DNA of 64,000 nucleotides from Vampirovibrio chlorellavorus (GCA_001858525.1 LAPX01000001.1:161473-225472); one strand, 5' to 3'. Shown: positions 9,620 to 56,081, counted from the first letter of the stretch. Notes: generated from the letters alone by a model not told the origin. Numbers and translations: made by a program.

Positions 9620-10870
9620 ATGCCTCAAAAGCCCATCTATCATTACCCCGTCCGTCTAGGAGCGGCTTGCGCTATTTCGGTGATGGCCTTGTCCGCAGCC
9701 CCGGCCTTTGCCTATCAACTGGACGCCCCCAATCGAACCCTCAACGTGGCCCCCGGGGCCAGCCCCAATGAGACCACCAACGATCTCAAAGGTGCTTTCA
9801 ACTATCTCGTCAATCGCAGTGACAAAGCCAACCAGTGGACTGTAAAATTCGCTCCCGGCAACTACTATATTGTGAGCCAAATTCCCATTCGAAACCTGGA
9901 AAACACCGTATTACAAGGCGATCCCAATAAACCGGCCAAGCTGATTAAGGACAAAACCTTTAACAGCGCCACCGCCGGAGAGTATTTACTGAATTTTCAA
10001 TTCGGCAAAAAGCTTTCCATGAACGGGCTACAGTTTTACGGACAAACCAGTTTTGCCGCCAGCCTGGCACCGGTGTGGCCGGATCAAGGTGTCTATTTTG
10101 GCTCCTGTAATGGGGTAACCGTGCAAAAAAACAGCTTTTATAACTTTGGCAACGCCGCCCTGCGGGTCACCACCACCGAACGGGATCCGGTGCCCGGGGT
10201 AAACAGCTTTAATACCGTGGTGGCCAATAACCTGTTCAACAACATCTATCAGATTTCCACCACGCCCAACGATGAAATTCATGGCGGCAGCACCAATTAC
10301 GTTTTGCAAAACAACGTGTTCTACAACCTGCGAGGCTCCATTAAATTCGCCTCTCGCACCGCCGGGGCCAAAAACGTGAAGATCCTCAATAATAAGGTCA
10401 ACGGCGGCGATCACTACGCCTTTGAAATTAACAATTACGATGACATGGAAATTCGGGGCAACAGCCTGCAAAACCTCAAGGAATTTGCCATCAACATCTA
10501 CAACAATCCCCGGGCCAGCCAGTCCTTCAATTGGGGCAACAATTTCATCATCGCCGATAACCTGATTAATACGGTGGGCCGGGGGATTCGCTTTAGCACC
10601 GAGCCTTACGCCGATGGCACCCTAGTGACGCCCAGCAACGTCACGTTCACCAACAACAGTCTGGACAAAGTCACTGACACCAGCGGCCTGCCAGCCATCG
10701 CCCAGGTCAACGGCACCATCAAAGGGCTAACCATTACCAGCAATAAATTCAACAACATTACCAACAAAAAATACATTGGCTACAATGCGGCCTCCAGTAA
10801 CGTGACCTACTTTAACAATCAAGCTAACGGACAACCTTACGGACCGCAACAAAGTACGACCAGTAACTAG
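9620..10870 (+). CDS. secreted right-handed parallel beta-helix repeat protein (pectate-lyase-fold; possible adhesin or polysaccharide-active enzyme)
   Basis: Signal peptide AISVMALSAAPAFA; Asn-rich periodic repeats (NNxFxN..., VxNNxF) typical of PbH1 beta-helix. Confidence 0.75.
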   Translation: MPQKPIYHYPVRLGAACAISVMALSAAPAFAYQLDAPNRTLNVAPGASPNETTNDLKGAFNYLVNRSDKANQWTVKFAPGNYYIVSQIPIRNLENTVLQGDPNKPAKLIKDKTFNSATAGEYLLNFQFGKKLSMNGLQFYGQTSFAASLAPVWPDQGVYFGSCNGVTVQKNSFYNFGNAALRVTTTERDPVPGVNSFNTVVANNLFNNIYQISTTPNDEIHGGSTNYVLQNNVFYNLRGSIKFASRTAGAKNVKILNNKVNGGDHYAFEINNYDDMEIRGNSLQNLKEFAINIYNNPRASQSFNWGNNFIIADNLINTVGRGIRFSTEPYADGTLVTPSNVTFTNNSLDKVTDTSGLPAIAQVNGTIKGLTITSNKFNNITNKKYIGYNAASSNVTYFNNQANGQPYGPQQSTTSN

Positions 10871-10893
10871 GCAAAGCGATCTCACAACAACAG

Positions 10894-10932
10894 GCGGGCT
10901 GAGGAAGCCAGGGTTCCCTTAGCCCGCTTTTG
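10894..10932 (+). terminator. rho-independent terminator
   Basis: GCGGGCTGAGG ... CTTAGCCCGC stem followed by TTTT immediately after the beta-helix gene. Confidence 0.55.
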
Positions 10933-11161
10933 CTGGAAGGCTTTATAAGGCGGCCAGCACCTTCCTCACATGAGCTGGCTATGAAAGAATGAAAGATAAA
11001 GTGCCATCCTGCAAGCCCAGGTTGGTACACTATGTTAAGAAATATAAACATCATTTTCAGCCGCCTCCTCAAGTATTGGTTCAGTCTGCCGATACTGATA
11101 AAGGAAAGGGCTAGCCAAAATGGTACACTCGCGAATTCTCTCCAAGAGAAGGACAGCATGT

Positions 11162-11770
11162 ATGTTCTCCACCCTGCGGCCTCAGCATTACCATCCATTC
11201 GGATTTACCCTGGCCGAATTGTTGATTTCTTTAGCCATTTTGGGAGTGATTGCCACCTTCACCATCCCCAAAATTCTTTCAAGTCAGCAGGATTCCAAAT
11301 ACAGCGCCTCCGCCAAAGAAGTGGTCGCCATGTTTTCCGACGCTTACCAACAAGCAAAGTTTTCCAGTAGTAACGTGGCCAGTATCGCACCTGCCAACTT
11401 GTTTCAATACATGAACTATGTAAAAACTGACACCACCTCTTCTATTGATGGTCTTTACACGCAAGGCGTCTACGGTGTTAATTGCTCTCAAAGACCCTGT
11501 ATTCAGCTGCACAATGGTGGCATTGTGTTGGCCAGTCAATGGAATTTCGGGGGAACCGGCACCACCAACTCCATCAACTTTATTTACGACCCCGATGGAA
11601 AAGTAACCGATGGCACCACCACCGGGCCCGGTAAGTCCGTCATTTTTTACCTCTATGCCAACGGGAGAATCGTAACCAGCGCCAATGTTCTGCCCGGGAC
11701 CACCAATCAATCTGGCGGAACGTATTCGGCAAACGCCAACCTGGACCCGCCCTGGTTCAGCTGGAATTAG
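11162..11770 (+). CDS. type IV pilin-like protein (prepilin-type N-terminal cleavage/methylation domain), paralogue 1
   Basis: Leader ...HYHPFG|FTLAELLISLAILGVIATFTIPKIL with Glu+5; RBS GAAGGA before ATG 11162 (ORF opens at 11120); Cys pair mid-protein; C-terminal DPPWFSWN shared with paralogues. Confidence 0.8.
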   Translation: MFSTLRPQHYHPFGFTLAELLISLAILGVIATFTIPKILSSQQDSKYSASAKEVVAMFSDAYQQAKFSSSNVASIAPANLFQYMNYVKTDTTSSIDGLYTQGVYGVNCSQRPCIQLHNGGIVLASQWNFGGTGTTNSINFIYDPDGKVTDGTTTGPGKSVIFYLYANGRIVTSANVLPGTTNQSGGTYSANANLDPPWFSWN

Positions 11771-11888
11771 AATTGATTTTTACAATTCCAAAAATCACCC
11801 TCAAGTTTTGGGATACCCTGTCGATAAGCGTCGTAGGTCAATTTATAAAGCGCCAAGTTAGTGCAGTCCTTTTCAAGAGGTTTAACCC

Positions 11889-12524
11889 ATGTATGAGCAG
11901 ACAGACAGACAGACAGACAGACAGACACGCCAGCTTAAACAACTTAATCTGAGCTGGCAAGGCTTTACACTCGCTGAACTGCTCATTAGTCTAGCCATTC
12001 TGGGCGTCATCGCTACCTTTACCATTCCTAAAATCCTGAGCGCCAGCCAAAACGAGGCAAATGAGGCGAAAGTAAAAGAAGCCGCAGCAACCCTTTCAGC
12101 AGCGTATCAACAAGCCAAACTAGACGGGGTCATCAATAGCAATACCAAGGGCTCGGATCTCACCCCATACCTGAATTATCTGGCCTGGGATAACAATGGA
12201 ACCACGACTATCGATCACGGGCCTTGGTCCACTTTTCAAACTTGTAATATCACTTTTCCCTGCGTCAAACTCGCGAACGGAGCAACGATCCTGTTTGACG
12301 GGGCGCAATTTGGGGGCACGGCTACCACCAACATGATTGCTTTTTATGTAGACCCGGAACCCGGCTACTCAGGCACCACCAATCCCGTGCGTTCCGTTTC
12401 AATGGTACTTTATTATGATGGCTTTATAACATCCCGCGCATACACCCGAGCGAATAGCTTTACCTCCGCCGGGGGACCTTACGGCCCTGGCAGTTTTGAT
12501 CCACCCTGGTTTACCTGGAACTAG
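11889..12524 (+). CDS. type IV pilin-like protein, paralogue 2, with (CAGA)7 repeat in the leader-coding region
   Basis: MYEQTDRQTDRQTRQLKQLNLSWQG|FTLAELLISLAILGVIATFTIPKIL...DPPWFTWN; RBS AGAGG. Confidence 0.8.
   Translation: MYEQTDRQTDRQTRQLKQLNLSWQGFTLAELLISLAILGVIATFTIPKILSASQNEANEAKVKEAAATLSAAYQQAKLDGVINSNTKGSDLTPYLNYLAWDNNGTTTIDHGPWSTFQTCNITFPCVKLANGATILFDGAQFGGTATTNMIAFYVDPEPGYSGTTNPVRSVSMVLYYDGFITSRAYTRANSFTSAGGPYGPGSFDPPWFTWN
11898..11927 (+). repeat. tetranucleotide repeat (CAGA)7CA inside the 5' coding region of pilin paralogue 2
   Basis: Read directly: cagacagacagacagacagacagacaca, encoding QTDRQTDRQT. Confidence 0.95.
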
Positions 12525-12629: not shown

Positions 12630-13297
12630 ATGTTTCTAGCCCCCCCCCCCCCCCCCCCCCCCCCCGAAAACGCCTAAAGTCAGTCCTGGGCTTTACACTC
12701 GCTGAATTGCTGATTTCTCTGGCCATATTAGGGGTGATTGCTACCTTTACCATCCCTAAAATTTTATCCACCCAGCAAAACGCTCAGAACGTTGCCAAGG
12801 CAAAAGAAGCAGCAGCAATGATTTCAGAGGCTTTTCAGAAAGCAAAACTGAATGGTGTTATTACTTCAGCTACCAAACCCTCTGATTTAGCTGCTTACAT
12901 GAATTACGTCAGTCTGGACACTTCTGGCACACTCATGGATCACGTACCAGGCGTTGGTTCCAGGCCTTGTAATAATACATATCCCTGTATAAAACTTCAT
13001 AATGGCGGTATACTAAGTTTTGATGATGGGGCTACCTTTGGCGGCACTTCCAGTTTACATGCAATGTTTATTCTTTTTGATCCAGACGGGATTTACAGTG
13101 GTTCCACCGCGGACGGGCCTTCTAAATCTGTGCAATTTGCTATTTATTACGATGGCTTCTTAACGACCAGGGGGATAGTCAAAACCGGTACTGTTTATAG
13201 CTTGGGATCTCTTTCACCTGCTCCTAGCGAAGATCCATCTTGGTTTAGCTGGCAAGAATCTGGCGTCAGTACCATTGAGCCCGTAAGGCAAGAATAG
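12630..13297 (+). CDS. type IV pilin-like protein, paralogue 3. Its 5' end contains a 26-nt poly-C tract; ATG 12630 is out of frame with the pilin body in this assembly (phase OFF, or a homopolymer length error)
   Basis: ATG at 12630 (MFLAPPPPPPPP...) reaches a stop; the pilin frame (…PPP RKRLKSVLG|FTLAELLISLAIL… DPSWFSWQ) has no in-frame ATG after the stop at 12608. C25 or C28 would restore frame. Confidence 0.6.
12640..12665 (+). repeat. homopolymeric poly-C tract (about 26 nt) in the leader-coding region of pilin paralogue 3
   Basis: Read directly from the sequence. Confidence 0.95.
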
Positions 13298-22510: not shown

Positions 22511-23635
22511 GTGACCACACCTAAAAAAGAGAGAGTTCAGATGACCGCTATGACGCATCGGTTTAGACGAACCTGTGCCAATCCGATCCGGCTTTTGGGG
22601 ATGCTGGCTCTGCTTGTGGTTCTTGGCGGAAACGCGCAGGCCATGCCGCCGGTCCCCATGCAGTTGCCCGATTCGAGTCCCCCCATTCAGGCACCTATTG
22701 CTACCAATCAAGCGTTGCCACTAAATCCCATTGCCAGCGTTCAACTGATTAATCAAGAATTGCGCCTGATCAGCCCGCCGGGTACTCAGCTACTGGTAAA
22801 AAATCGCTTTGTGCTGCCCAACCCCACCCGATTAGTGGTGGATATCGATCAGGCCCTGCTACCGGAAAAGGCCATACAACTGCCCAGCGGCACCCTGGGC
22901 CCTATGCCTTACACCACCATTCGTCTGGGACAGTTTGACGCCACCACGGTGCGACTGGTCATTGAATCGCCCCAAGCTGACAAACTGAACATCAGCCTGG
23001 GACGAGGTACCAATCATGTCCTTCGGGTGTACGCGCCGGAAGCACCCGGCTTGGCCAGCCGCTTCTTTCAGCGCATGATGGGACGCCCTCAGCCAAAGAA
23101 TCCCCAAATTGCCTACAACGCCCCACCCAGTCCTTATACGGCCACGGATTACCGACCCAATTTTGGCCCACCGCCGCTCTCGTATTCGGCCACCCCTCTC
23201 AACCGCATGAAAATCGTGGACGTGGCCCGTTCTCAGTTGGGCGTTAGCAAAGCCGAAGCCAGAGAGTATGTCAACAACTCCTACAGCTTGGGGAAAGATC
23301 AAGCCTGGTGCGCCGATTTCGTCTCCACAGTGCTGAACTGGGCCGGTGGCTCGCCTTGGGGGCACACCTCGCTGGTGCGGGATATCTACGACTGGGGCAT
23401 TAGTCACCAACGCATCAAACCCTTCCCCGAGCCCGGCGACATCGCCATTTTTCGCTTCAGTGTGTCTGGCTTTGATCACACCGCCATTGTGGAAAGCCTG
23501 CTACCCGATCAGAGCTTCACCACCATTGGGGGGAACGAGGGGACACGCTCTGGCAACGCCCCCGGCGGCATGGTGCAGCGCAATCGTTACCCGGTTGGCG
23601 ATCCTCGCATTCTGGGCTATATCGCGCCACTCTAG
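22511..23635 (+). CDS. secreted cell-wall hydrolase with AMIN domain and C-terminal CHAP amidase/peptidase domain
   Basis: Signal peptide; AMIN-like RLVVDIDQA...TVRLVIE; CHAP catalytic Cys (QAWCADFVS) and His (GFDHTAIVE). Confidence 0.75.
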   Translation: MTTPKKERVQMTAMTHRFRRTCANPIRLLGMLALLVVLGGNAQAMPPVPMQLPDSSPPIQAPIATNQALPLNPIASVQLINQELRLISPPGTQLLVKNRFVLPNPTRLVVDIDQALLPEKAIQLPSGTLGPMPYTTIRLGQFDATTVRLVIESPQADKLNISLGRGTNHVLRVYAPEAPGLASRFFQRMMGRPQPKNPQIAYNAPPSPYTATDYRPNFGPPPLSYSATPLNRMKIVDVARSQLGVSKAEAREYVNNSYSLGKDQAWCADFVSTVLNWAGGSPWGHTSLVRDIYDWGISHQRIKPFPEPGDIAIFRFSVSGFDHTAIVESLLPDQSFTTIGGNEGTRSGNAPGGMVQRNRYPVGDPRILGYIAPL

Positions 23636-35521: not shown

Positions 35522-38152
35522 ATGGCGGAAACACCGTTCATTCGAAAAGCGGCTGTTCTGGGCGCGGGGGCCATGGGCTCCGGTATTGCCGCCCAATTGG
35601 CCAACGCCGGGGTACAGGTGTATCTGCTGGATATTGTGCCGCCCAATGCCCCCAGTGAAGATGCCTCTGCCCGAAATCTCATTGCCAACAACGCCATCCA
35701 GCGCATGTTGAAAGCCACGCCGGCCACCGATCCGCTGAACGCCGGCTTCATGCACCCGGACAACGCCAAACGCATTACCCCCGGCAATCTGGAAGATCAT
35801 CTGGCCGAAGCGGTGGCCGATGCCGATTGGGTGGTGGAAGTGGTCATTGAGAATCTGGACATCAAACGAAACCTCTACGCCCGACTGGAAACCCTCTGTA
35901 AACCCACAGCGGTGATCTCCTCCAACACCTCCACCATCCCGCTTGAAACCCTGATTGAAGGGCGATCGATGCCCTTTAAAAAACGGTTTATCATCACCCA
36001 CTTTTTCAACCCGCCCCGCTTTATGCACCTGCTGGAAATCGTCAGCGGGCCAGATACCGATGCGGACATTGCCCCGCAAATGCAAACCTTTGGCGATGTA
36101 CATCTGGGTAAAAACGTCATTATCTGCAAAGACACCCCGGCCTTTTTGGCCAATCGTATTGGCATTTACTTCATGTTTCGGGCCATTACCGAGGCCATTG
36201 AGCAGGACATGCCCATTGAAATTGTAGACGCCATTCTGGGCAAGCCCATTGGCTACCCCAAGGAAGGCATTTTTGGCCTGCTGGATCTGGTGGGCATTGG
36301 CATTATTCCGCTGGTTACGGAAAGCTTGTTGAAAACCCTGCCCGCCGATGACGCATTCCGCAAGTTTGATCACGAAAAAGGACTGACCCTGGTGGGCAAT
36401 TTACTCAAAGCAGGATGTACCGGCCGCAATGCCCCCAACGGCGGATTTTACCGCATGCAAAAAAACGCCGATGGCACCAGGCAAAAACTGGCTATTCGCC
36501 TGAGTGATGGCGGCAACTACCCGGTGGAAAAACCCAAACTTGCCTGCGTGAAAGCGGCCCGAAAAGACGGGCCCAAAGCCATGTTTGAAACAGACGATCG
36601 CTACGGACGTTTCGCCTGGGTGGTGGTGCGGGATACCTTGTTGTATGCGGCCACGTTAATCCCCGAAATTGCCGATGACATCGCCGAGGTGGACGCCGCT
36701 TTGCGTGGCGGATACAACGCCCACTGGGGCCCCTTTGAGCAGATTGATCAAGTGGGGGTGGACTGGTTCTGTAAGCGGGTGCAAGCCGATGGCATTGCGC
36801 TACCACCTGCCTTGAAACTGGCTCAGAATCGACCCTTTTACAAAACGGTGAACGGCAAACTGCTTCGGCTGGTGTTTGATTTTGAGCGCCAACAAGCCGA
36901 ATATGCCCCCTTGCTGGATCGACCGGGCTGCCTCAACTTCGGGGAAATCAAACACAGCCAAAACGTTTTAGTCCATCACCATTCGGCCAGCCTGTGGGAT
37001 TTGGGTGATGGGGTCACCTGTCTGGAATTTCACTCCAAAATGAACACCCTGGACCCATCCGTGTTGCACGTGGTCAATGAAAGCGTGCGGTTTATGACTC
37101 AAAACGCCGCCCAATACAAAGCCATGGTCATATACAACGCGGAAAAAAACTTCTCGCTGGGGGCCAATTTGGGCCTTATTGACGCCGGCTTTCAGCTCAT
37201 CCGCCAGCCCTTCATGCGGCAAACCGGCTTAAGCCAACTCTTTGGCCTTGGATTGTACAAAGGCATTGAATGCCTGGTGTTTCAGGGGCAAAGCGTGTTC
37301 AGCGCCTTGCGCTATGCGCCATTCCCGGTGGTGGGCGCTCCCAACGGCATGGCCATCGGGGGCGGCTGCGAAATTTTAATGCACTGCGACGCCCTGCAAC
37401 TAAACGCGGAAGCCTACATGGGGCTGGTGGAAAGCGGGGTGGGTCTTATCCCCGGCTGGGGCGGCTGCGCCCGCTATCTGGCCCGATGCCAGGAGGAAGC
37501 AAACCGCAAAGGTGGGGTGATTCCCCCGGTTCGCAAAGCCTTTCAGGCCATTCTGATGCCCCAACTGGCCGTGTCCACTTCCGGGCAGGACGCCCAAGGC
37601 AAACTGTGGGGCAGCCCGCAAGATGGCATAACCATGAACCCGGATCGGGTGCTGGCCGATGCCAAAGCAAAAGCGCTCTCCCTGATTCCAAACTATCAGC
37701 CGCCACAACCCAGCACCTATCGCTTGCCTGGCCCCAGCGGCAAAGCGGCCTTGCAAATGGCCATTGATGATTTCTATGCCAAAGGCGATGCAACCTGGCA
37801 CGATGTGGTGGTGGCCGATGCCCTGGCCGACGTGTTGACCGGGGGTCCCACCAGCAGCGCACAAACTGTATCCGAAAACGATTTGTTACAGCTGGAGCGG
37901 GAACAGTTTTTATCCCTGATTCGGCTGAAGCAAACCCAAAAACGCATTGCCCACACCCTGAAAAGCGGCAAGCCACTGCGAGAAGATCCCGCCCGTGTGA
38001 GCGATTCACTGGATGAGTTACGAAAGGCTCGTACCGTCAAAGCACTGGCCAAACGAACTGTGACCGGGCTGCCCTTGATTGGGCTGGATGCCCTGCAACT
38101 GCGCTGGATGGCCGAGTTTACAGCGATTTTACTGAAGAAATTCGCTCCCTAG
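35522..38152 (+). CDS. bifunctional 3-hydroxyacyl-CoA dehydrogenase / enoyl-CoA hydratase (HAD domain N-terminal, crotonase domain C-terminal)
   Basis: NAD-binding AAVLGAGAMGSGIAAQLA at the N-terminus; crotonase-fold VVGAPNGMAIGGGCEILMHCD...GLIPGWGG in the C-terminal half. Confidence 0.88.
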   Translation: MAETPFIRKAAVLGAGAMGSGIAAQLANAGVQVYLLDIVPPNAPSEDASARNLIANNAIQRMLKATPATDPLNAGFMHPDNAKRITPGNLEDHLAEAVADADWVVEVVIENLDIKRNLYARLETLCKPTAVISSNTSTIPLETLIEGRSMPFKKRFIITHFFNPPRFMHLLEIVSGPDTDADIAPQMQTFGDVHLGKNVIICKDTPAFLANRIGIYFMFRAITEAIEQDMPIEIVDAILGKPIGYPKEGIFGLLDLVGIGIIPLVTESLLKTLPADDAFRKFDHEKGLTLVGNLLKAGCTGRNAPNGGFYRMQKNADGTRQKLAIRLSDGGNYPVEKPKLACVKAARKDGPKAMFETDDRYGRFAWVVVRDTLLYAATLIPEIADDIAEVDAALRGGYNAHWGPFEQIDQVGVDWFCKRVQADGIALPPALKLAQNRPFYKTVNGKLLRLVFDFERQQAEYAPLLDRPGCLNFGEIKHSQNVLVHHHSASLWDLGDGVTCLEFHSKMNTLDPSVLHVVNESVRFMTQNAAQYKAMVIYNAEKNFSLGANLGLIDAGFQLIRQPFMRQTGLSQLFGLGLYKGIECLVFQGQSVFSALRYAPFPVVGAPNGMAIGGGCEILMHCDALQLNAEAYMGLVESGVGLIPGWGGCARYLARCQEEANRKGGVIPPVRKAFQAILMPQLAVSTSGQDAQGKLWGSPQDGITMNPDRVLADAKAKALSLIPNYQPPQPSTYRLPGPSGKAALQMAIDDFYAKGDATWHDVVVADALADVLTGGPTSSAQTVSENDLLQLEREQFLSLIRLKQTQKRIAHTLKSGKPLREDPARVSDSLDELRKARTVKALAKRTVTGLPLIGLDALQLRWMAEFTAILLKKFAP

Positions 38153-38966
38153 GGTAGTCGATCAGAAAACCGTCATAGGCCAACCAGCCCTTCATGTCTC
38201 GACCAGGGCGATTCACTTGGCCTTGAGGGACGTACCGTAGCAAGGCTTTCTCCAGGGTGACAAAACCCAATTGTTTAAAACGCGTTCTATCCTCGGCAGA
38301 TTCTGGCTTGATAAGCAGGCGCAAGTTCTCTTTTCGGGCTTGTTGCATGGCTTCCTGCAACAGATAATCTTCAATGGCTTCTCCCAACTCGCTCTGTCGA
38401 ATGGCATTAGGAATATCGACTTCCAGTGCGTAAAAGGTCTTGGGTTCGGTGTTGCCCAGCATACGAGAAGCCCGCTCACGCCGCAGGGTACCCAAGGTAA
38501 GACCGATTGAGTTTTTCAACCAAAAAGCCCCATGGTCACTTAAATTGCCATATTGGGATAACACATGCTCCACAGCCTTGGCGTCGTCTACCACAGCCAC
38601 TTTTTTCTCAATTTTAAGGCGTTGTGGAATGGGAATTTGTGGGGCTTGATAAAGCCCAGGCGCCCCAAAACGAACCGGGCTTGCCTTAGACGGGGCTGGT
38701 TTTCGGTGGGTCGAACCCAGCGGCAGTAACATCAGCTCGGTCACAGAAGGTTGCTTTTTGAAACGATTACCAAGCCCCTGCCAGAGCGTTTGCAGCTTTT
38801 GCCAAATCATGGTGGCGCAATGAACATCATTTTCAGCAGTTGAATCCAGCGGCAAGGGTGCCGTCAAGGGCCAGTTGGGATAACGCTCCGCAACAGTCAC
38901 AGGCTTCAATTGCCTGTTCATTCTGGAAACTGGCTGTTGCCCCAATGAGGATACAGTGCTGTTCAT
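38118..38966 (-). CDS. hypothetical protein with GNAT-like acetyltransferase C-terminal half
   Basis: C-terminal region FYALEVD...GEAIEDYLLQEA...LRLLI compatible with the GNAT fold; the true start is probably internal. Confidence 0.35.
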   Translation of the reverse strand: MNSTVSSLGQQPVSRMNRQLKPVTVAERYPNWPLTAPLPLDSTAENDVHCATMIWQKLQTLWQGLGNRFKKQPSVTELMLLPLGSTHRKPAPSKASPVRFGAPGLYQAPQIPIPQRLKIEKKVAVVDDAKAVEHVLSQYGNLSDHGAFWLKNSIGLTLGTLRRERASRMLGNTEPKTFYALEVDIPNAIRQSELGEAIEDYLLQEAMQQARKENLRLLIKPESAEDRTRFKQLGFVTLEKALLRYVPQGQVNRPGRDMKGWLAYDGFLIDYPRERISSVKSL

Positions 38967-39282: not shown

Positions 39283-40203
39283 ATGCCCAATCATCCCGGT
39301 CAATCGAGATTACATCGCCGTGCTTGGGGAAATGTAACGCCCGAGTATGCCCTGATTGGTGCGATTGTTCTCGGCGCGTCCTGTGTGGCCTTGGCCAATA
39401 TTGGAGATACGGTCTCCATTCTGTTTAATAATATGCTGGGCACCAAGCCAAAGCAAACCACTGAAGTCACCGCGCCGCCAACAGGCAACGGGCAAGTTAA
39501 TCCTCCCCCTCAGCAAGGTGCAGGGGTGCGCATCACCCTCTCTGATGGGACCATCATCCACTTACCGGAATACCCGCAGGATCTCACCTCATTAATCAGC
39601 ACGGCAGGGGCAAATGGAGCCACCGATGTACTGGCCAACACCATCAAAGTACTGGCCCAACAATTGCTGGATAGTGGCGCCATTACAAAGGCAGAATTCA
39701 ATAACCTGATTGCTATGTCCAACCAGGGTCACCGCATTGCCAATGTTCAAAAAGCCATTGAATCCGTGGCCCAAAATTCGAGCAGTCCCTCAGAGTTTAG
39801 TTCCAGTATGTTTGAGTTCGATGGGAACACATACAGTCTGGATGAAATCACTGCGCTCATTGGTTTCGATAACGATTCCATGGATCCCAACGCGGTTGTG
39901 GATCACCTAACCGACCCCACAGCCAGCCCCGAAATCAGTGCTTTTCAAAATCTTTTCGCAAAAGCACTGCAGACCGGCGCGTTGGATGATCCAGTGCTCC
40001 GGGATGTGGTTCAGACCTTATCAGAACAAATTCTGTCATTAAGCGACCTGACTAACATTGCAGCCTACAATATTGCAGATTACTCAGCACCTCCAAGCAG
40101 TATGACTCAGAATATAACAAGCAATTTAACCGATCAAAAAGCGGCTGGAATCTGTGGTGCCGGGGCCGGTGTGGATTCCGGAGTGCAATGCTCAGCCACC
40201 TGA
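39283..40203 (+). CDS. large Flp/Tad-type pilin-like protein, copy 1 (class III signal peptide plus ~270-aa C-terminal domain with terminal Cys-Cys loop)
   Basis: Leader MPNHPGQSRLHRRAWG|NVTPEYALIGAIVLG matches the Flp G|xxxxEY(G/A)(L/I)I motif; conserved mid-region NQGHRIANVQKAIE; C-terminal C-GAGAGVDSGVQ-C. Confidence 0.7.
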   Translation: MPNHPGQSRLHRRAWGNVTPEYALIGAIVLGASCVALANIGDTVSILFNNMLGTKPKQTTEVTAPPTGNGQVNPPPQQGAGVRITLSDGTIIHLPEYPQDLTSLISTAGANGATDVLANTIKVLAQQLLDSGAITKAEFNNLIAMSNQGHRIANVQKAIESVAQNSSSPSEFSSSMFEFDGNTYSLDEITALIGFDNDSMDPNAVVDHLTDPTASPEISAFQNLFAKALQTGALDDPVLRDVVQTLSEQILSLSDLTNIAAYNIADYSAPPSSMTQNITSNLTDQKAAGICGAGAGVDSGVQCSAT

Positions 40204-40352
40204 TTTTTCGATACGCCTGACCGTGACTTAAAGTTAACCGACCGACAAAAACAAGTCTGTAATTTGGAAGCTACAGGGGCCTCTAGAATGGAGGATTGAT
40301 GAAAGCCCACCCGTTTTTTAAACCCAATGTAAAAACATTTATAAATCCCTAA

Positions 40353-40640
40353 AGATTTGAGAAAAACCGTCGAAAAAAAGCTAAAGATTAGGATTTACCA
40401 ACTTTAACCATCATTTACTTTATCAGGAGAACCTTATGCGGCGTAAATACCCAGGCAGACCATACCGAACCGCCACTGTGGGGAATACTCTAACAGAATA
40501 TGGAATTATCGGTTTCATTGTCTTGGGGCTTAGCTGGTTGGCACTCAGCAACATGGGGGACTTTGTCTCTACCCTGTTCAAAAATATGTTGGGACAAAAA
40601 CCATCGCCAACGGCACAAGTCGCTGCACCACCGTCTTCAG
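40353..40640 (+). repeat. direct repeat A (~290 bp): conserved promoter, 5'UTR, leader and N-terminal coding module of Flp-like copy 2
   Basis: About 95% nucleotide identity to 41456..41741 (GAAAAACCGTCGAAAAAAAGCTAAAGATTAGGATTTACCAACTTTAACCA...ATCAGGAGAACCTTATG...); similarity ends abruptly after ...GCTGCACCACCGTC. Confidence 0.8.
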
Positions 40641-41356
40641 TAAGCCCTCCCACGGATACTGAGGGGCCACTGACCAGTGATGTACAAGTGACCTTAGGCA
40701 ATGGCACTACCCTGGATCTGTCAAGCTACCCCCTGGATTTTACAGAATCTGTTGTCACATCAGGCGCCAACGGAACTACCAACCTGCTCGCCAATACCCT
40801 TAAATCTCTTTCTCAACAACTCCTGGAAAAAGGAGAAATCAACCAAGATCAGTTCAACACACTAATCGCCCTGGCCAATCAAGGGCACCGGATGGCAAAG
40901 ATCCAAAAAGTCATTGAGACAATGGCCTTGAACTCAACTAGCTCCAATAAATATTACAACAGTGTTTTTAATTTTGATGGACAGACTTATACCGTAGATG
41001 AAATCAGTATGATGATAGGGTTTGACTATGATGATCCCTCTTCAATTTCAGACCCTTTAACGGATCCAAACGGTGGTGCAGAAGTCATAGAATACCAAAT
41101 GCTTTTTCAACAGGCAGTCAACAGCGGCGCCTTAAATGATCCGACTTTAAATCAAGTCATACGAACATTATCATCCCAAATCATATCGTTATCGGCTTTA
41201 ACCGAACATGCCTCTTACAATATCGCTATTATTGGAGATCCCCCAGACAGTATAAGAGAAAATATTACCAGTAATTTAAACAATAAAAACGCAGCCGGGA
41301 TCTGCGGGGCAGGCAACGGTGTGGATAATGGAGTCCAGTGTGCGTCAGGCGGCTAG
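40436..41356 (+). CDS. large Flp/Tad-type pilin-like protein, copy 2
   Basis: MRRKYPGRPYRTATVG|NTLTEYGIIGFIVLG; conserved NQGHRMAKIQKVIE; C-terminal C-GAGNGVDNGVQ-C; RBS CAGGAGAA. Confidence 0.7.
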   Translation: MRRKYPGRPYRTATVGNTLTEYGIIGFIVLGLSWLALSNMGDFVSTLFKNMLGQKPSPTAQVAAPPSSVSPPTDTEGPLTSDVQVTLGNGTTLDLSSYPLDFTESVVTSGANGTTNLLANTLKSLSQQLLEKGEINQDQFNTLIALANQGHRMAKIQKVIETMALNSTSSNKYYNSVFNFDGQTYTVDEISMMIGFDYDDPSSISDPLTDPNGGAEVIEYQMLFQQAVNSGALNDPTLNQVIRTLSSQIISLSALTEHASYNIAIIGDPPDSIRENITSNLNNKNAAGICGAGNGVDNGVQCASGG

Positions 41357-41455
41357 AATCCTGATTAGTCCATTCGCCTGAGCTGTGGAAAACTAGCCGA
41401 CCACAATTCTTAGAAAGTTTTGATTCGAATGTAGAAAATAATATAGAAATGCCTT

Positions 41456-41741
41456 CAGATTAAAGAAAAACCGTCGAAAAAAAGCTAAAGATTAGGATTT
41501 ACCAACTTTAACCAATGCTCACTGTATCAGGAGAACCTTATGTAGCGTAAATACCGAGGCAAAACGTACCGAACCACCACTGTGGGGAATTCCCTAACAG
41601 AATATGGAATCATCGGTCTCATTGTCTTGGGGCTTAGCTGGTTGGCACTCAGCAACATGGGGGACTTTGTCTCCACCCTGTTCAAAAACATGTTGGGAGA
41701 AAAACCATCGTCAACGGCACAAGTCGCTGCACCACCGTCCT
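41456..41741 (+). repeat. direct repeat B (~290 bp): 5' module of Flp-like copy 3, near-identical to repeat A
   Basis: See 40353..40640. Confidence 0.8.
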
Positions 41742-42460
41742 CAGGCGCAGGTATCAACACCCCTGACGCACTCACGAATAACCTGAACGATGGAAGCTTA
41801 CTTGAAATTGGATTAAGTAAAAGGTTGCAAACGTTAGGGGCAAACGGTGCAACTTCTACTCTGGCAAACGAATTGATAAGAGTGGCAGAGGAGGCCTTGG
41901 CTACTGAAAAAATCAATCAAGAGCAGTATGATATTTTGATACAGCTTGCTAATCAAGGTCACAGAATGGCTGACATTCAGTTTATGATTGAGAATGCCAT
42001 TGAACTTTCTAATGGGAATTATAATGAATTTAGTTCGAGTGAAGTTACCTGGGATGGGCGTACTTATACGGTATTAGAACTCTCTAAGATGTTAGGTCAT
42101 GATGGCTCGCCTAATATTTACACATCAGAAGGAAATATTTTAGAAGATCTATCTTCTATGAAAAACAGTGCCGTAGATCCTGAACTGGCTGCATTTATAA
42201 ATCTGTATAAGCAAGCACTGGATAGCGGCGCTCTATCGGATCCTTTGGTGAGCTCCACCGTGGAAAGCGCAGCCACTCAGATTGCAAGTATTGGGGAAAT
42301 TGTACAGCATTCTATTTATGAATTTTCAGAAGGTGATGTTAACACCGTTTCCGAGTTTAAGGATAACCAGGTTTCCATTGCAACAGATATGGAGTCTTCT
42401 AATATTTGCAAGGCTGGAGATTACGACGACAGTGGCGTTTACTGTTCACCCAAGAATTAG
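41582..42460 (+). CDS. large Flp/Tad-type pilin-like protein, copy 3. The ancestral start ATG at 41537 is followed immediately by TAG, so the ORF can only initiate at GTG 41582 (leader reduced to about 2 aa). Possible pseudogene or silent cassette
   Basis: atgTAGcgtaaatac... vs copy 2 atgCGGcgtaaatac...; downstream frame encodes ...TTTVG|NSLTEYGIIGLIVLG, NQGHRMADIQFMIE, C-terminal C-KAGDYDDSGVY-C. Confidence 0.55.
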   Translation: MGNSLTEYGIIGLIVLGLSWLALSNMGDFVSTLFKNMLGEKPSSTAQVAAPPSSGAGINTPDALTNNLNDGSLLEIGLSKRLQTLGANGATSTLANELIRVAEEALATEKINQEQYDILIQLANQGHRMADIQFMIENAIELSNGNYNEFSSSEVTWDGRTYTVLELSKMLGHDGSPNIYTSEGNILEDLSSMKNSAVDPELAAFINLYKQALDSGALSDPLVSSTVESAATQIASIGEIVQHSIYEFSEGDVNTVSEFKDNQVSIATDMESSNICKAGDYDDSGVYCSPKN

Positions 42461-42615
42461 GGATTGAAAAATCAGGAGATTATCTCTGAGGAACTAAAAA
42501 TCAGCCGAATGACTATCTCAGGACCCCAATTCGGGTAATCCAGAGACTGGCAGAAAAGAATAAAATAAAGGGGTTCCACCCTCCCGTCAGGAGATAGCTA
42601 TCAAGGAGGCTCCTG

Positions 42616-42981
42616 ATGACATGCTCAGACTTAGCTCTTCTTAAAACGGAATGGCTCTCAAGAAGAAAGCCTGACGCTACCCTATTGCGGGCAACCCACT
42701 TTGAAAAACTGATTCAATGCTTTAGTCAGGGCTACCCGCCCTCAGTTCAAATGCCATCGGTTGTATCACTGGCAGCGCTTTACCAGTGCGAGATTCTGTC
42801 CTTGTTGGGCAGCCTGAAACAATTGCATCAACATGCCTACGACTACAGGATGAACAGCCTGGATTTACCGCTGGTGCTTCTGGATCCGCTGTCTCGTTTT
42901 CGTTGCAGAAAATCACTGCTACGCCTGAAAAAAAGACAGACTCTCAAAAATAAGAAACAGGTAAACCCTTACCACTTATGA
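42616..42981 (+). CDS. hypothetical protein (121 aa)
   Basis: Strong SD AAGGAGG 8 nt upstream of ATG; no recognised domain. Confidence 0.5.
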   Translation: MTCSDLALLKTEWLSRRKPDATLLRATHFEKLIQCFSQGYPPSVQMPSVVSLAALYQCEILSLLGSLKQLHQHAYDYRMNSLDLPLVLLDPLSRFRCRKSLLRLKKRQTLKNKKQVNPYHL

Positions 42982-52056: not shown

Positions 52057-53151
52057 ATGGTAACGACAACTCTAAACAGCATTACCTTGCCGTCCAAACG
52101 GTCCACAGGGAAAACTCTACCTGTGCGCTTTGGTTCCGGCAGCGCCATCCTGGCCAAAACGGCCGGGCCAGAGGTTCAGCATGAAGCCGTGGTACGCGGA
52201 TACCGTTTTGCCAGCTTCATCAAAAACCGCCTGCTGGGTGGAAAGCTGTTTAATAATGATATCCGTTGGGGCGGTTTATCCCTGGAGGATATGGCCAGTC
52301 GGGTACAAACCCTGTTGGGCGTTTATCTGCTGCAAGGCTACTACGCCATTAAAGACGACAAACACCCTTGGGAAACCAATGGCCGGAACGCTGTTATCTG
52401 GGTGATGACCCTGTTGCTGCAAAACCTGGCCAAAAGTGAGAATTACGGGGTCAATACCCTGCTCTTCAACCCGTTTATGCGGCAAAAAGGATACCTCTCC
52501 TCAGAAATGTCCGGGCTGCAAAAATTCCTCGATCGCGGCCGCATGGACGTGGATTATCTGGATATCCTGCAAGATGCCGGCATTAAAATCAGTGATGACG
52601 AGCTAAAGGGCGCCCGAAAGGGTAAAAAAGCCTTGTGGGCCTCCTCTTGGCTGGACGCTAACAAGACGGATATCATTAAAAAACGATATCGGGACCTCCA
52701 TCAAAAGATACAGGAAAACGCCAAAGCCCTGGCCGACAAAAAGCCCATTCCCCATATCCTGACCCCTCTGGAAAAAGCCATAGAAAAAGAGATTCCCCGG
52801 TTTTTTAAACGAATAAATGGCTGGAACATGGCATCCACAGGGCTAGTCGTCGGAGCCACCATATATTTCATTGGCGGGGTGGCCATGGATATCGTCAACA
52901 AAGTCATCTCTCCCCTGGACAAAGACTTTGAAGGCAACAAGAACCTACCCCCCGACCAAATTCTTAAAAATCCCATCCTGGCCAAAACCCACCCGCCTCA
53001 GAGTACCCTCACCAACACCCCGTTTTCACCCACCACTACCAGTAGCATCACCACACCGCCAATCCAATTTTTTCAGAGTTATGTGAGTCACCGTCGTCAT
53101 AGCACCCCATCTACCCTTCCCGGCTCTAGTCTTCCCGGAGGGCTTGGTTGA
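52057..53151 (+). CDS. hypothetical alpha-helical protein with C-terminal hydrophobic segment and S/T/P-rich tail (first gene of a coupled pair behind an AT-rich island)
   Basis: 364-aa ORF, K/E-rich coiled-coil-like; TM-like GLVVGATIYFIGGVAM; stop TGA overlaps the next start (TGATG). Confidence 0.55.
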   Translation: MVTTTLNSITLPSKRSTGKTLPVRFGSGSAILAKTAGPEVQHEAVVRGYRFASFIKNRLLGGKLFNNDIRWGGLSLEDMASRVQTLLGVYLLQGYYAIKDDKHPWETNGRNAVIWVMTLLLQNLAKSENYGVNTLLFNPFMRQKGYLSSEMSGLQKFLDRGRMDVDYLDILQDAGIKISDDELKGARKGKKALWASSWLDANKTDIIKKRYRDLHQKIQENAKALADKKPIPHILTPLEKAIEKEIPRFFKRINGWNMASTGLVVGATIYFIGGVAMDIVNKVISPLDKDFEGNKNLPPDQILKNPILAKTHPPQSTLTNTPFSPTTTSSITTPPIQFFQSYVSHRRHSTPSTLPGSSLPGGLG

Positions 53152-56081
53152 TGGGCATGCTTCCAATGGCTATGCAGCTGAACCCCTGGGCACAACGAGC
53201 GCTGGCTCAGTCAGTGAACCTGGGCTACGCTGGACGGGGCACCTATCGGGTTCATGAAACCAACCCGGAGCGCAAAGGGGATTATTGGTTTCGGGACTTT
53301 GGCATGGTCATGGCTTGCACCTACATGACCGAAATGGGCTTCCGGGGAACCGAACGCTTTTACACCATGCCCTTGTTGACCAACGCCCTGGAGCTTCAGG
53401 CCCTCAGAACCGAGCTTGGCCAAAAGCGGGTTATCCCCACCTTTGATACAGTGCAAATAAAAAATGGCGCACGCACAGACTCTGTCCAGTTGCTCAATTC
53501 CAAGCCCCTGTATCCACGGGCCTGGAACTATTCCGAGTTGCCCGAAGCGCTGCGTGAGAAGATGATGGGCACCCTGATCCGCAACAGTTCCGAGCTGGTG
53601 CCCCAAGTGTTGCAGGAAGAAGCCCTGAATGAAATCAGGGCGCTAGAAATCAAGGCGTTAAAAGAAAAGGCGTTAAAAGAAAAGAATCCCCCGCCTTATA
53701 AAAGCTTGAAACAGCTCATCACCCATCCGCTCAACCCGGATAATGGCAACTTGGTGGAAGCGTTCATCGAAAAAACCGCCGGACTCAGCAGCCATCGGGC
53801 CGAGTTGGAACGCATCGCCAAAATTGACAACAAAGCCACGGCCGAGGCGGAAACCCAAAAACTCTTTCAGAAACTATCCGCCACCCACACGGACAAAGAA
53901 ACGCTGAAGGCCCACATTCAGCAATCCGTGCAACTGCTCAAAACCGAGCAGTTGGGCATTCTGATCAACCATCTGGATCGCAACCTGAACTTTCAGCATT
54001 ATTTGGAAAGCAACTTTTTAAAACCCAAAGCAGAAGTCCTCAAGCCCAAGGGCGCCATTGAGCCTCGTTACTTCAAGTTGCCGGAAGCTTTGGCCCCGCG
54101 TAACCCCTTTAGCGCCGTGGATGAAATATCCGGCATTGTGTCCGATCGGATGCGCTTTTACATTGATAAACTCAATAGCCTACAGCACCAGGGAAAAGCC
54201 GATTTACGCAGCCTGGCCGAAAAAGTCCGGAGGCTGCCTCTGGATCAGCGGGAAAAAGCCTTCACCAAAGGTATTCAGGAAATCGAAAACCTGCAGTTTC
54301 TGTACAAAAAACAATCTCTGACCGACCACTGGCATGCCTCCACCAGCAAAGATATTTTGAAACTGATGGAAGAAGAGAAGTTAGATACTAACGCGGCGCA
54401 GGATCTCATCAAACAGGAAAACCTGGAGCGACAAACAATCCTGCAAGGCATTCAAAAAAGTAAAAAGCAGCTTGGCAACCAGGATCAAAAGCTAAAGTGT
54501 CTGGAAGAATGGGCCGACAACAACCACAATTATCTGCTGAACTGGGAAAACGAATTCCGCATTGAAAAAGACCGGCTTCAGGCTTTTCTGACCAAACCCA
54601 CCGAGCGGGCCCACAAGCCCAAGGGATACATTTCCATGAACCAGCTGAACACCCAGCTAGGGCATTTTGAAGGCTGGTTTGAAACGATCTCCAAAAGCCT
54701 GCAAGTCCGAAACGCCATTTTGGACAACTTGTGGCAGCACTTGGGCGAGGATTTGCTGCTGCAAGTGAAGAAAAAAGTAAAAACCGCCTTTGAAGACGTC
54801 AACAAACTCTCCTACGAGCACTTACCCCTCTATACCGAAGGTCCGCTGAAAGGCCAACCGGTGGAGAAAGGGAAACTGCTAGAAGCCCGATTACAAGATA
54901 TTGGCCTGCGGCACTGGCTGGATGATAGCGAAATCAAGCATTTAAGTGAAGATTTGGCCCAGCATTTACCAAAAATGTCCAGTACCACTGAGACCGCCAA
55001 AGACCTTGAGCAGCACAGCGTGGAATCAGTCATGGGCAAGGTCAAAAAGACCATTTGGGCTCACCTGACCGGTGATGTGGATTACAACAACCTGAACGAT
55101 TCGTTCTGTAAAAACTTAAAAGCCCAAGTGGATGCCAAACTGAACGCGCTGAGCCCAGAACAGCAAACCACGCTGAAGGCCGGAAAAATACGGGGCAAGC
55201 TGTTCAGTCAGCTTACCAACACCGATGCCTTCGGCAACCCGCTCTCCAATCAGTACGAAGAGGGCATGGAAACCCTGCTGAAAAAAATCCTGAACGAAGC
55301 AAACCTGCACGTTGTTAAGAATCAGAGCGGTCACGAGGTTAAAAGTGCGGAGTGGACGGTTAAAAGCCTGATTACTGATGGCTTGCAAAGCCATATGGTC
55401 AAGTCCGCGGTGGATAAGATTCAGAAAAACGGCACCTGGCCCAAAATTCTGGCCACCGTGGGGCTTAACTTCGTCTTCTACGGATGGCTGGCCAGCCGCT
55501 TTGACAATAAAGTTCTGCAACCCTACCAGGAAAAGCTGGTGGCTGAAAAAGGAACCGCTCAGGATATCGTCAATGCCGGCTATCTGGGTACCTTGCCCGC
55601 CGTTGCTATTCTCTCCCAGGCCTGGGACAAAACCACCTTGCCAATGCTCAACGGCCTGAGACGTATGAACCACTTCAGCCGCTTTGCCTCCGTGGGTGGC
55701 GTAGCGCTGGGCGTGTTTGCAGCCTCTTCCTATGGATTCCTGAAAGTTTTGGAAAAAAAGTCAGCCCCCCAACCCGGATATCCCAAAAAGCAACCCCCTG
55801 CGGTGACACCAAACACCCAGCCATCCGTGCAACCAACCTTTAACGCCCTATCAAAGCCCGCCATTACGCCGCCTGCATCCAGTCTGGATAGCCCCTTCAG
55901 TAATCGAAGCCAGTTGAACGGCCTACCCTTTCAAAGTTATCGTCCTCAGGCCACCGCGTTCAACCAGCCGCAAAAGCGTCCCGTACTGAATCGATCCAGT
56001 GCCGGGCCGACTTTTCTATTTCCACCCTGCTTTCAAGGACAACCCTTTCCTGTAAAGCAACCGCTGCCTAAGGCTGAGTAG
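53151..56081 (+). CDS. large hypothetical coiled-coil protein (976 aa) with bilobed C-terminal hydrophobic region and Pro/Gln-rich tail
   Basis: Long K/E/Q/L-rich helical sequence (e.g. EIKALKEKALKEKNPPP); hydrophobic ILATVGLNFVFYGWLA and FASVGGVALGVFAASSYGF near the C-terminus; no enzymatic motif; ATG at 53151 (ORF track starts at TTG 53148). Confidence 0.6.
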   Translation: MGMLPMAMQLNPWAQRALAQSVNLGYAGRGTYRVHETNPERKGDYWFRDFGMVMACTYMTEMGFRGTERFYTMPLLTNALELQALRTELGQKRVIPTFDTVQIKNGARTDSVQLLNSKPLYPRAWNYSELPEALREKMMGTLIRNSSELVPQVLQEEALNEIRALEIKALKEKALKEKNPPPYKSLKQLITHPLNPDNGNLVEAFIEKTAGLSSHRAELERIAKIDNKATAEAETQKLFQKLSATHTDKETLKAHIQQSVQLLKTEQLGILINHLDRNLNFQHYLESNFLKPKAEVLKPKGAIEPRYFKLPEALAPRNPFSAVDEISGIVSDRMRFYIDKLNSLQHQGKADLRSLAEKVRRLPLDQREKAFTKGIQEIENLQFLYKKQSLTDHWHASTSKDILKLMEEEKLDTNAAQDLIKQENLERQTILQGIQKSKKQLGNQDQKLKCLEEWADNNHNYLLNWENEFRIEKDRLQAFLTKPTERAHKPKGYISMNQLNTQLGHFEGWFETISKSLQVRNAILDNLWQHLGEDLLLQVKKKVKTAFEDVNKLSYEHLPLYTEGPLKGQPVEKGKLLEARLQDIGLRHWLDDSEIKHLSEDLAQHLPKMSSTTETAKDLEQHSVESVMGKVKKTIWAHLTGDVDYNNLNDSFCKNLKAQVDAKLNALSPEQQTTLKAGKIRGKLFSQLTNTDAFGNPLSNQYEEGMETLLKKILNEANLHVVKNQSGHEVKSAEWTVKSLITDGLQSHMVKSAVDKIQKNGTWPKILATVGLNFVFYGWLASRFDNKVLQPYQEKLVAEKGTAQDIVNAGYLGTLPAVAILSQAWDKTTLPMLNGLRRMNHFSRFASVGGVALGVFAASSYGFLKVLEKKSAPQPGYPKKQPPAVTPNTQPSVQPTFNALSKPAITPPASSLDSPFSNRSQLNGLPFQSYRPQATAFNQPQKRPVLNRSSAGPTFLFPPCFQGQPFPVKQPLPKAE

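Follow-up and report, generated by a model that had tools for sequence, protein, structure and literature searches.

In a 64,000-nucleotide stretch of DNA deposited under the name Vampirovibrio chlorellavorus (GCA_001858525.1, LAPX01000001.1:161473-225472; hereafter the window), three consecutive genes at positions 39283-42460 encode proteins of 306, 306 and 292 amino acids (aa), in which an N-terminal module of ~50 residues, homologous to the Flp pilins of Tad pili, is joined through a low-complexity tether to a conserved helical domain bearing a C-terminal cysteine pair. We read these long Flp proteins, with a probability of roughly 0.55, as a complete Flp-type (type IVc) prepilin module carrying a tethered display domain, most likely serving as sparse or tip subunits of a Tad pilus. 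The architecture of the three copies is beyond chance, since the same layout recurs in 1,679 cluster representatives of a protein family that is observed almost only in Vampirovibrionales. The elements of the locus are listed here by position in the window; ORF denotes an open reading frame, and V. chlorellavorus, here and below, denotes the closely related genome represented by a 2.87-Mb contig.

39283-40203, + strand: copy 1, ORF of 306 aa, orthologous by position and by sequence to the one V. chlorellavorus gene
39283-39330, + strand: leader of copy 1 (M1-G16)
39331-39441, + strand: Flp-like module of copy 1 (N17-G53)
39442-39525, + strand: tether of copy 1 (residues ~54-81), followed by the helical domain (residues 82-306)
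40153-40155 and 40189-40191, + strand: Cys291 and Cys303 of copy 1
40204-42615, + strand: 2.4-kb segment carrying copies 2 and 3, absent at the syntenic V. chlorellavorus locus
40354-40653, + strand: recombination (gene-conversion) block of copies 2 and 3, with its copy 3 partner at ~41458-41757
40436-41356, + strand: copy 2, ORF of 306 aa, the protein used for the structure model
40436-40483, + strand: leader of copy 2 (M1-G16)
40484-40594, + strand: Flp-like helix of copy 2 (N17-G53)
40595-40678, + strand: tether of copy 2 (residues ~54-81)
40679-41353, + strand: domain of copy 2 (residues 82-306)
41303-41305 and 41339-41341, + strand: Cys290 and Cys302 of copy 2
41540-41545, + strand: ancestral start of copy 3 (ATG 41540-41542) followed by TAG (41543-41545), where the homologous codon of copy 2 is CGG
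41582-42460, + strand: copy 3, ORF of 292 aa from GTG
42407-42409 and 42443-42445, + strand: Cys276 and Cys288 of copy 3

The homology of the N-terminal module (N-module) to true Flp pilins was established by remote-homology evidence. Its profile was aligned with that of 120 PF04964-labelled Flp pilins (53-102 aa, gathered with Caulobacter PilA as bait) at hhalign 96.9% and E 1.9e-10 over 55 columns, which span the leader, Gly, E-Y, the helix and L-G-x-x-L/F, i.e. essentially the whole 59-aa PilA precursor, in register. Against the same Flp pilins, the best of 20 column shuffles gave E 0.011, the reversed alignment 0.049, the heads of the type IVa (T4a)-type prepilins of the window 0.13 and the C-terminal domain (C-domain) of the family 0.09; the three window sequences alone reached 46.8% (E 2e-4) versus the Flp profile, while the T4a heads versus the long-Flp family gave 43.8% over just 19 columns. 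Searched with the profile, 177,635 PDB sequences gave two significant matches and no others, both to Tad pilus subunits solved by cryo-EM: 8u1k (PilA) at E 3.2e-6 and 8u2b at E 2.7e-5, over residues 2-38 of the mature 45-aa pilin. Flp_Fap was also the commonest Pfam match in the family: of 146 members, 42 matched it at E <= 0.1 (lowest E 1.8e-5), and 10 matched the next family. Conservation runs along the entire helix, beyond the cleavage site. TadE (PF07811) and N_methyl (PF07963) gave no match in the window proteins and were not among the 25 most frequent Pfam matches of the 146 members, and the archaeal Class_IIIsignal (PF04021) was matched neither in the N-termini tested (E <= 10) nor among these 25; the T4a-type prepilin at window position 11120, which served as positive control, did match N_methyl. 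The Flp-like N-termini proposed by an initial annotation of the window are hence borne out at the profile-profile level, while the window proteins themselves fail the Flp hidden Markov model (HMM) outright; the comparison with the PF04964 and PF07811 HMMs that the annotation had suggested returned no match for any of the three. The N-module is, on profile evidence, homologous to Flp pilins, although it does not reach the curated Flp cutoff.

The three ORFs are real and are, as annotated, consecutive paralogues of the lengths given above. Copies 2 and 3 are 54% and 39% identical to copy 1 in a three-way alignment (54/38/48% pairwise among copies 1-3 by global alignment), and the C-domain of copy 3 is the most divergent, with 34-37% identity to copies 1 and 2 and all family invariants retained. 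Common to the three are G|N-x3-E-Y (the bar marks the predicted cleavage after Gly-1), the hydrophobic helix, LANQGHR, SGAL-DP and a C-terminal I-C-x11-C. The conserved core noticed by the initial annotation therefore recurs in every copy as LANQGHR, and its terminal C-x(10-11)-C holds as a Cys pair whose spacing is x11 throughout; its motif with a fixed Thr needs correction to G|N-x-x-x-E-Y, as Thr stands at +3 in copy 1 only and at +4 in copies 2 and 3. A textbook Flp signal, claimed for each protein, was found in all three as far as motif and helix go, with the leader missing from copy 3. There, TAG at 41543 removes the 15-residue basic leader; because the ancestral ATG abuts this TAG, GTG 41582 is the only usable start, from which the protein reads M-G|NSLTEY with a single Met before the -1 Gly. 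Copy 3 has been recently disabled, is weakly re-initiated or bears a sequence error, and, with its leader lost, is probably impaired or silent. Each gene is preceded by its own ~230-bp AT-rich spacer, and AGGAG lies ~7 nt before the ATG of copy 2 and before the ancestral ATG of copy 3; within 38.9-43.1 kb, promoter-like sites (4 versus 7.2 expected in shuffles) and terminator-like sites (8 versus 4.3 ± 2.3) showed no clear departure from chance.

By an exhaustive HMM search of 1.84 billion representatives of clusters at 50% identity, the family was found to comprise 1,679 cluster representatives at E <= 1e-3, 1,025 at <= 1e-10 and 472 at <= 1e-30, whereas a word-indexed search recovered just 23 clusters, with V. 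chlorellavorus and metagenomes as their sources. Apart from a few truncated gene calls and one 524-aa variant (P0043), the top 150 representatives are ~285-350 aa long and match the profile end to end, and in these 150 the C-domain is without exception joined to the Flp head. Among 157 near-full-length members, a G-x4-E-Y-type motif with a hydrophobic stretch was found in 141 (the others being mostly truncated gene calls), Tyr follows the Glu in 136, and two Cys lie within the last 40 residues in 156, spaced by 11 residues in 146. The +1 residue is Gln in 85 and Asn in 41 of the 141 motif-bearing members (Q/N ~90%), and the leaders count 2-63 residues before Gly, mostly 5-16, with a net positive charge in 88%. 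In an alignment of 146 sequences, G-1, E+5 and Y+6 (G16, E21, Y22) are conserved at >=90%, and T-x-G-A-N-G-T-T, L-x-N-x-G-H, G-A-L-x-D-P and I-C-xx-G-x5-G-xx-C are further invariant or near-invariant. The named sources are Vampirovibrio, Vampirovibrionales and Melainabacteria metagenome-assembled genomes (MAGs), together with one MAG labelled Coleofasciculaceae, on whose 63-kb contig ('Coleofasciculaceae cyanobacterium') the member lies at 9977-10894 (L012); this is either a mis-binning or an extension of the family beyond Vampirovibrionales.

The full-length window proteins gave noise only in Pfam and NCBIfam (sub-threshold SHOCT and DUF3160 in the former, nothing consistent in the latter), no model of either collection covers the family or its C-terminal domain, and no paper describing these proteins was found in the literature. 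The proteins are labelled 'hypothetical protein' at NCBI, and in IMG some as 'Flp pilus assembly pilin Flp' and others as 'phasin'. The proposal of an undescribed family is thus supported, while the Flp resemblance itself is not new, because the automatic labels of IMG already name some members Flp pilins. A scan of a genome collection with one strict peptide pattern yielded at least 12 loci and a metagenome scan two. Divergent paralogues of 261-336 aa, with the same Flp-type head and different helical tails, were observed in three of the sampled loci (L004 15324-16109, L007 2-922 and L008 1617-3754); some are without the terminal Cys pair, and the motif variants LANLGH, LAAQGH and MANAGH occur among them, which suggests that a wider 'long Flp' superfamily may exist in Vampirovibrionales.

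The part following the helix, described initially as one extra domain of ~270 aa, actually consists of a ~25-aa low-complexity tether and a folded domain of ~225 aa. An AlphaFold2 model of copy 2, computed with the 146-sequence alignment, reached a mean predicted local distance difference test (pLDDT) score of 89.3 and a predicted template-modelling (pTM) score of 0.74. It places a helix at residues 18-51 and the tether at ~52-80 (pLDDT ~58-64), followed by a domain with pLDDT >90 that contains a beta-hairpin (83-95), helices (102-131, 137-166, 215-230, 236-266 and 270-292), a small beta element (177-186) and a terminal hairpin (295-304) between the two cysteines. Across the family the tether consists to 64% of A/S/P/G/T and has a median length of 24 residues (range 10-53). 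Conservation peaks, in copy 2 numbering, at residues 101-160, 231-250 and 281-300, and the tether and residues 161-220 and 251-280 are variable. For the ~225-aa domain no fold relatives were found, no Foldseek match having E < 0.49; the structure prediction proposed as a check on the C-domain therefore delivered a confident fold, but that of a helical bundle without recognised relative. Its resemblance to the D-region disulfide of type IVa pilins is an analogy only, as the fold is a helical bundle and not the alpha-beta roll of pilins. The invariant Cys pair would place the domain in an oxidising, extracytoplasmic location, and one may speculate that the G/D-rich hairpin (G-x-G-x-D-x-G) binds Ca2+.

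The family evolves rapidly and by modules. The window is collinear with the 2.87-Mb V. chlorellavorus contig over an acyl-CoA dehydrogenase/ligase fusion, thiolase, 3HCDH, a hypothetical gene on the minus strand (hyp282), the family gene, a second hypothetical gene (hyp121), Usp, PFOR, LexA and RlmN. The housekeeping proteins are 90-98% identical between the two, and copy 1 shares only 67-68% with its V. chlorellavorus orthologue (P0002/P0003; 73-74% in the C-domain); judged by these identities, copy 1 evolves far faster than the neighbouring housekeeping genes. V. chlorellavorus has one family gene at the syntenic site, with 133 bp between it and the hyp121 homologue, and the guanine-plus-cytosine content is 45% in copy 2, 43% in copy 3 and 52% in the window. 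The block shared by copies 2 and 3 comprises ~80 bp of upstream sequence and codons 1-72, with 266 of 300 nt identical (89%), and beyond it the identity drops sharply to ~45%; at the protein level, the N-modules of the two copies are 92% and their C-domains 37% identical.

Tandem arrays recur independently, with three genes in L003/L005 and in L010 and two each in L018 and L021, while larger or odd arrays are the six genes of L016 and the three of L019, one of them inverted. Within arrays the N-modules are often much more alike than the C-domains, with 91-100% identity in several pairs against 33-71% for the C-domains; individual values are 76-78, 96, 98 and 100% versus 33, 71, 68 and 67% for the respective C-domains. 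When genomes are compared with one another, it is instead the C-domain that is better conserved (median 35% versus 29% for the N-module). This pattern indicates that the assembly module evolves in concert, or that domains are swapped onto a common module. For the antigenically variable set envisaged by the initial annotation, the recombination mosaic, the fast divergence and the recurrent arrays are suggestive of variation, and neither silent cassettes nor a switch was seen.

Several neighbours of family genes were considered as partners and set aside. The two hypothetical genes flanking the triplet (hyp282, 38118-38966, minus strand; hyp121, 42616-42981, plus strand) have no Pfam match and share 69% and 64% identity with their orthologues in V. 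chlorellavorus, versus 87-98% for housekeeping genes nearby, forming a small fast-evolving block with copy 1; they were rejected as functional partners, being present only at the syntenic V. chlorellavorus locus and not beside family genes elsewhere. In L016 (6318-14127), six family genes (282-332 aa), the first of which has K in place of E at +5 (G|NGLTKY), lie directly downstream of a gene for a FliI/type III secretion system-type ATPase; such an ATPase is found beside family genes in this locus only, and the link was dismissed as coincidental. The three family genes of L019 (143-13391), one on the opposite strand, adjoin prophage or mobile genes (Prim-Pol/VapE, a terminase small subunit and an HTH/M78 pair). 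No family relative was found on viral contigs, and a phage origin was rejected on this ground despite the prophage-like genes of L019.

No tad/cpa, T2SSE-type ATPase or prepilin peptidase gene was detected in the window by Pfam scans of 40 ORFs, nor any T2SSE-type Walker motif, in agreement with the absence of tad/cpa genes noted initially. In V. chlorellavorus, two tad/cpa clusters have been reported (tadB-cpaF-cpaE-cpaC-cpaB and tadE-cpaB-secretin-cpaE-cpaF-tadB-tadC), along with one PulO-type prepilin peptidase, four 'Flp pilin' genes and many T4a-type prepilins (Soo et al. 2015, PMC4451040, Table S3). A genome lacking any Tad machinery, which would have spoken against the Flp assignment, is thus not what this close relative has, with its two clusters and PulO; and because V. 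chlorellavorus is so close, Tad machinery is very probably present in the window genome as well. The only hint of Tad-like neighbours among the family loci comes from L021 (4018-16830), where, 3-5 kb downstream of two family genes with identical N-modules and past an opposite-strand M16 peptidase, ORFs for a 120-aa Flp-like, a 175-aa and a 318-aa protein are found; the second may be TadE-like, with a sub-threshold match (16.9 bits versus a cutoff of 22.9), and the N-terminus of the third is hydrophobic. The surroundings of this pair also encode a secreted-looking GH14 beta-amylase, an SLT/lysozyme-like protein with collagen repeats and a thaumatin-like protein.

In the reading favoured here, the hydrophobic alpha-helix of ~35 residues would anchor the precursor in the inner membrane with the C-domain facing the oxidising periplasm, a prepilin peptidase of the A24 family would cleave after Gly-1, and one of the Tad/Cpa machines of the cell, encoded elsewhere, would take the Flp module into the core of an Flp-type filament. 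The tethered domain would then point outward from the filament, because it is the Flp subunit's C-terminal end that forms the filament surface: the Tad pilus of Caulobacter is built from a 45-aa single-helix subunit without a globular domain, whose C-terminal end is the outer surface, with a rise of 4.9 Å, a twist of 102.8 degrees and a diameter of ~50 Å (PMC10710030). By volume estimate, the outer diameter of a homopolymer of long Flp proteins would come to at least 10-12 nm, an archaellum-like size roughly double that of the Tad pilus, and it is this diameter together with the flexible tether that makes a sparse or tip subunit likelier than a major one. Such subunits could lend the thin Tad filament a binding function, serving an epibiotic predator in attachment to its prey alga or to another surface, and the paralogues of one genome might form a repertoire in which the homogenised N-module fits one machine or filament and the display domains diverge. 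Assembly as the 'giant Flp pilins' of the initial annotation, Tad dependence and function are in this respect predictions from sequence.

Several observations weigh against this interpretation. No tad, cpa, secretion-ATPase or prepilin peptidase gene occurs within 10 kb of the family genes at 21 independent loci (a flank screen of 430 kb, with the last two loci checked separately), the Tad genes of the window genome itself were not seen, and PulO is the sole prepilin peptidase listed for V. chlorellavorus, without a CpaA/TadV-type enzyme (PMC4451040, Table S3). The three window proteins have no Flp_Fap match, either full length or with the N-terminus only, and all Flp_Fap matches of the family stay below the gathering threshold of 32.2 bits, with ten individual N-termini scoring 15-20.5 bits. 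The packing estimate disfavours dense incorporation through a Tad secretin, the flexible tether resembles no known major pilin, and no fold or sequence match backs a function of the domain.

The Flp-like head might instead serve as a class III signal for export and anchoring only, the proteins being cleaved by the peptidase and staying associated with the membrane or envelope, bindosome- or pseudopilus-like, without an extended pilus. We regard this as unlikely, though as a serious contender: Gln at +1 recalls the substrates of archaeal EppA, the tether might reach across some of the periplasm, the genes show no linkage to tad genes, and large class III-signal proteins exist in archaea, the sugar-binding proteins of the Sulfolobus bindosome being an example (PMC3047682). 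For anchoring only, however, it would be surprising that the whole Flp helix is conserved, filament-contact segment included, that E+5 and Y+6 are near-invariant, and that N-modules are homogenised within genomes, suggesting a fit to each other or to one machine. At the other end, a thick (>=10 nm), domain-sheathed type IVc filament with the geometry of archaeal pili or archaella could be built mainly from the long Flp proteins, and the 'thick bundles' observed on V. chlorellavorus would consist of such fibres; this we consider rather unlikely. It would accord with the strongly conserved core of the domain, as expected of a structural sheath, with the helical packing of Tad pili, which matches that of archaeal type IV pili bearing ~20-kDa outer domains at a similar rise, and with the tandem arrangement, tandem flp paralogues being usual for major Flp genes (flp-1/flp-2 loci). 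Moreover, no short canonical Flp ORF was found in 430 kb of Vampirovibrionales sequence, the Flp-motif ORFs of >=35 aa in the motif-scanned loci all being 260-350 aa long, with the 120-aa ORF of L021, from the family-HMM pass, as the one exception, and, since the 'Flp pilin' calls of IMG include long proteins, the four 'Flp pilins' of Soo et al. may be of the same kind. Yet the sampled loci exclude the tad loci, the normal site of a short flp; the domain sits on a tether of variable length and low complexity (pLDDT ~60), where known major pilins pack it on alpha-1; and a diameter twice that of the Tad pilus is a problem for a CpaC/RcpA-type secretin. A bolder version, in which such a sheathed Flp-helix pilus of >=10 nm seizes algal prey and recombination swaps display domains on the constant assembly module, is decidedly tentative and in our view doubtful; it would represent the fused 'helix plus outer domain' state on which Sonani et al. 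speculated for Tad pilins.

Two further explanations are much less probable than these. That the proteins are ordinary Sec-dependent signal-anchor or secreted proteins, whose hydrophobic N-terminus resembles Flp through composition or convergence, as an artefact, could draw on the missing Flp_Fap, TadE and N_methyl matches in the window proteins, on the sub-threshold (Flp_Fap) and inconsistent (TadE, N_methyl) matches in the family, and on the spurious matches that hydrophobic helices often yield; it is very improbable in view of the shuffled, reversed, T4a and C-domain controls, all at E >= 0.011 versus 1.9e-10, of the leader, Gly-1 and E-Y aligning in register, of PDB matches specific to Tad pilins, and of the conserved Glu at the start of the hydrophobic core, which is atypical of Sec signals. 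Still less credible, and close to being dismissed, is a contact-delivered toxin, in which a pilus would present the helical domain to prey as a ClyA/AhlB-like effector, either alpha-pore-forming or membrane-active. In favour of it are the predatory lifestyle and the appearance of SmhA in the Foldseek list at E ~2.3, but dozens of generic or de novo helical bundles stood at the same Z, with ~100-125 residues aligned at 4-11% identity, and no fold similarity to ClyA, AhlB or SmhA over the whole domain was found, in line with the Foldseek result above; the sequence is also without an evident hydrophobic beta-tongue or amphipathic head, its conserved motifs being polar loops.

Set beside known systems, the long Flp proteins share with the Flp/Fap pilins (PF04964; Caulobacter crescentus PilA, 8U1K/8U2B) the basic leader, Gly-1, Glu+5-Tyr+6, the hydrophobic helix and L-G-x-x-L/F, and tandem paralogues are common in both. 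The Flp/Fap precursors, however, have 53-102 aa, with 45 aa and no globular domain in the mature protein, in contrast to 292-306 aa in the window, and the long Flp proteins differ further in their +1 Q/N, in their sub-threshold PF04964 scores and in genes lying away from tad loci. The nearest functional precedent is the Kil Tad pilus of Myxococcus, where this predator adapts its pili by means of TadE/F/G-like minor pilins whose exposed, interchangeable domains serve in recognising prey (PMC12075869). The TadE/F/G proteins and the KilL/KilM/KilN Tips of Myxococcus xanthus (Herrou et al. 2025, PMC12075869) likewise have modular C-terminal domains, proposed exposure on the pilus, several paralogous sets in a predator and predicted disulfides. 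The long Flp proteins have an Flp-type (EY) head, a tethered helical domain and tandem paralogues of one kind; in the Tips, by contrast, the head is of TadE type, the pilin fold is beta-stranded and runs on from alpha-1, three different proteins make up a heterotrimer, and the genes lie in or near kil/tad clusters.

Archaeal class III proteins (type IV pilins, archaellins and the bindosome) also place a class III signal and alpha-1 helix before a large extracytoplasmic domain, and the Tad packing parameters fall within the range of archaeal type IV pili; the long Flp proteins are nevertheless bacterial, from Vampirovibrionales, without Class_IIIsignal match, and have a helical domain, not one that is beta-rich or like a solute-binding protein. 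Geobacter sulfurreducens PilA-N/PilA-C raises the same question of core versus outer domain (PMC10710030), but there the head is of T4a type and the domain resides on a second polypeptide, whereas the long Flp proteins hold an Flp-type head and a tethered domain in one. The D-region of type IVa pilins similarly has a C-terminal Cys pair closing a short loop near the protein end, which in the long Flp proteins is an 11-residue G/D-rich hairpin (IC-xx-G-x-G-x-D-x-G-xx-C) on a helical bundle; in contrast to type IVa/IVb pilins, +1 is N/Q and not F/M, and the true T4a-type prepilins of the window look quite different.

Flp/Tad pilins have been defined as tiny, all-helical proteins without an outer domain, and the fusion of such a module to a conserved 25-kDa domain would widen this definition and allow a concrete test of whether, in evolution, pilins gained an outer domain on their helical core by fusion or lost it by separation. 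The constant N-modules, diverging display domains, fast evolution and arrays recall the 'adaptable tips' of Myxococcus, built differently. The proteins are also candidates for the attachment to prey of Vampirovibrio, a non-photosynthetic relative of cyanobacteria that preys on Chlorella and harms algae grown commercially; at the molecular level its attachment apparatus is uncharacterised.

Other surface-related features were observed in the window. Just downstream of a beta-helix protein (9620-10870), two T4a-type prepilins of 216 and 211 aa are encoded at 11120-12524 (+ strand), with near-identical heads (G|FTLAELLISLAILGVIATFTIPKIL); their tails diverge and close with DPPWF(S/T)WN. A third tandem T4a-style prepilin at 12630-13297 (+ strand) has an intact leader and G|FTLAEL and no in-frame start codon; a 26-nt poly-C tract (12640-12665) comes after an ATG at 12630 that is out of frame (MFLAP8ENA*), and 27 or 24 C would fuse this ATG to the prepilin frame. 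We take the tract as a candidate switch for slipped-strand phase variation, in the OFF state in this assembly; the alternative is a homopolymer length error. Two ORFs with overlapping stop, of 364 and 977 aa, lie at 52057-56081 (+ strand) and have no Pfam match at E <= 0.01, and at 22511-23635 (+ strand) an AMIN domain and a CHAP peptidoglycan-hydrolase domain are combined in one protein.

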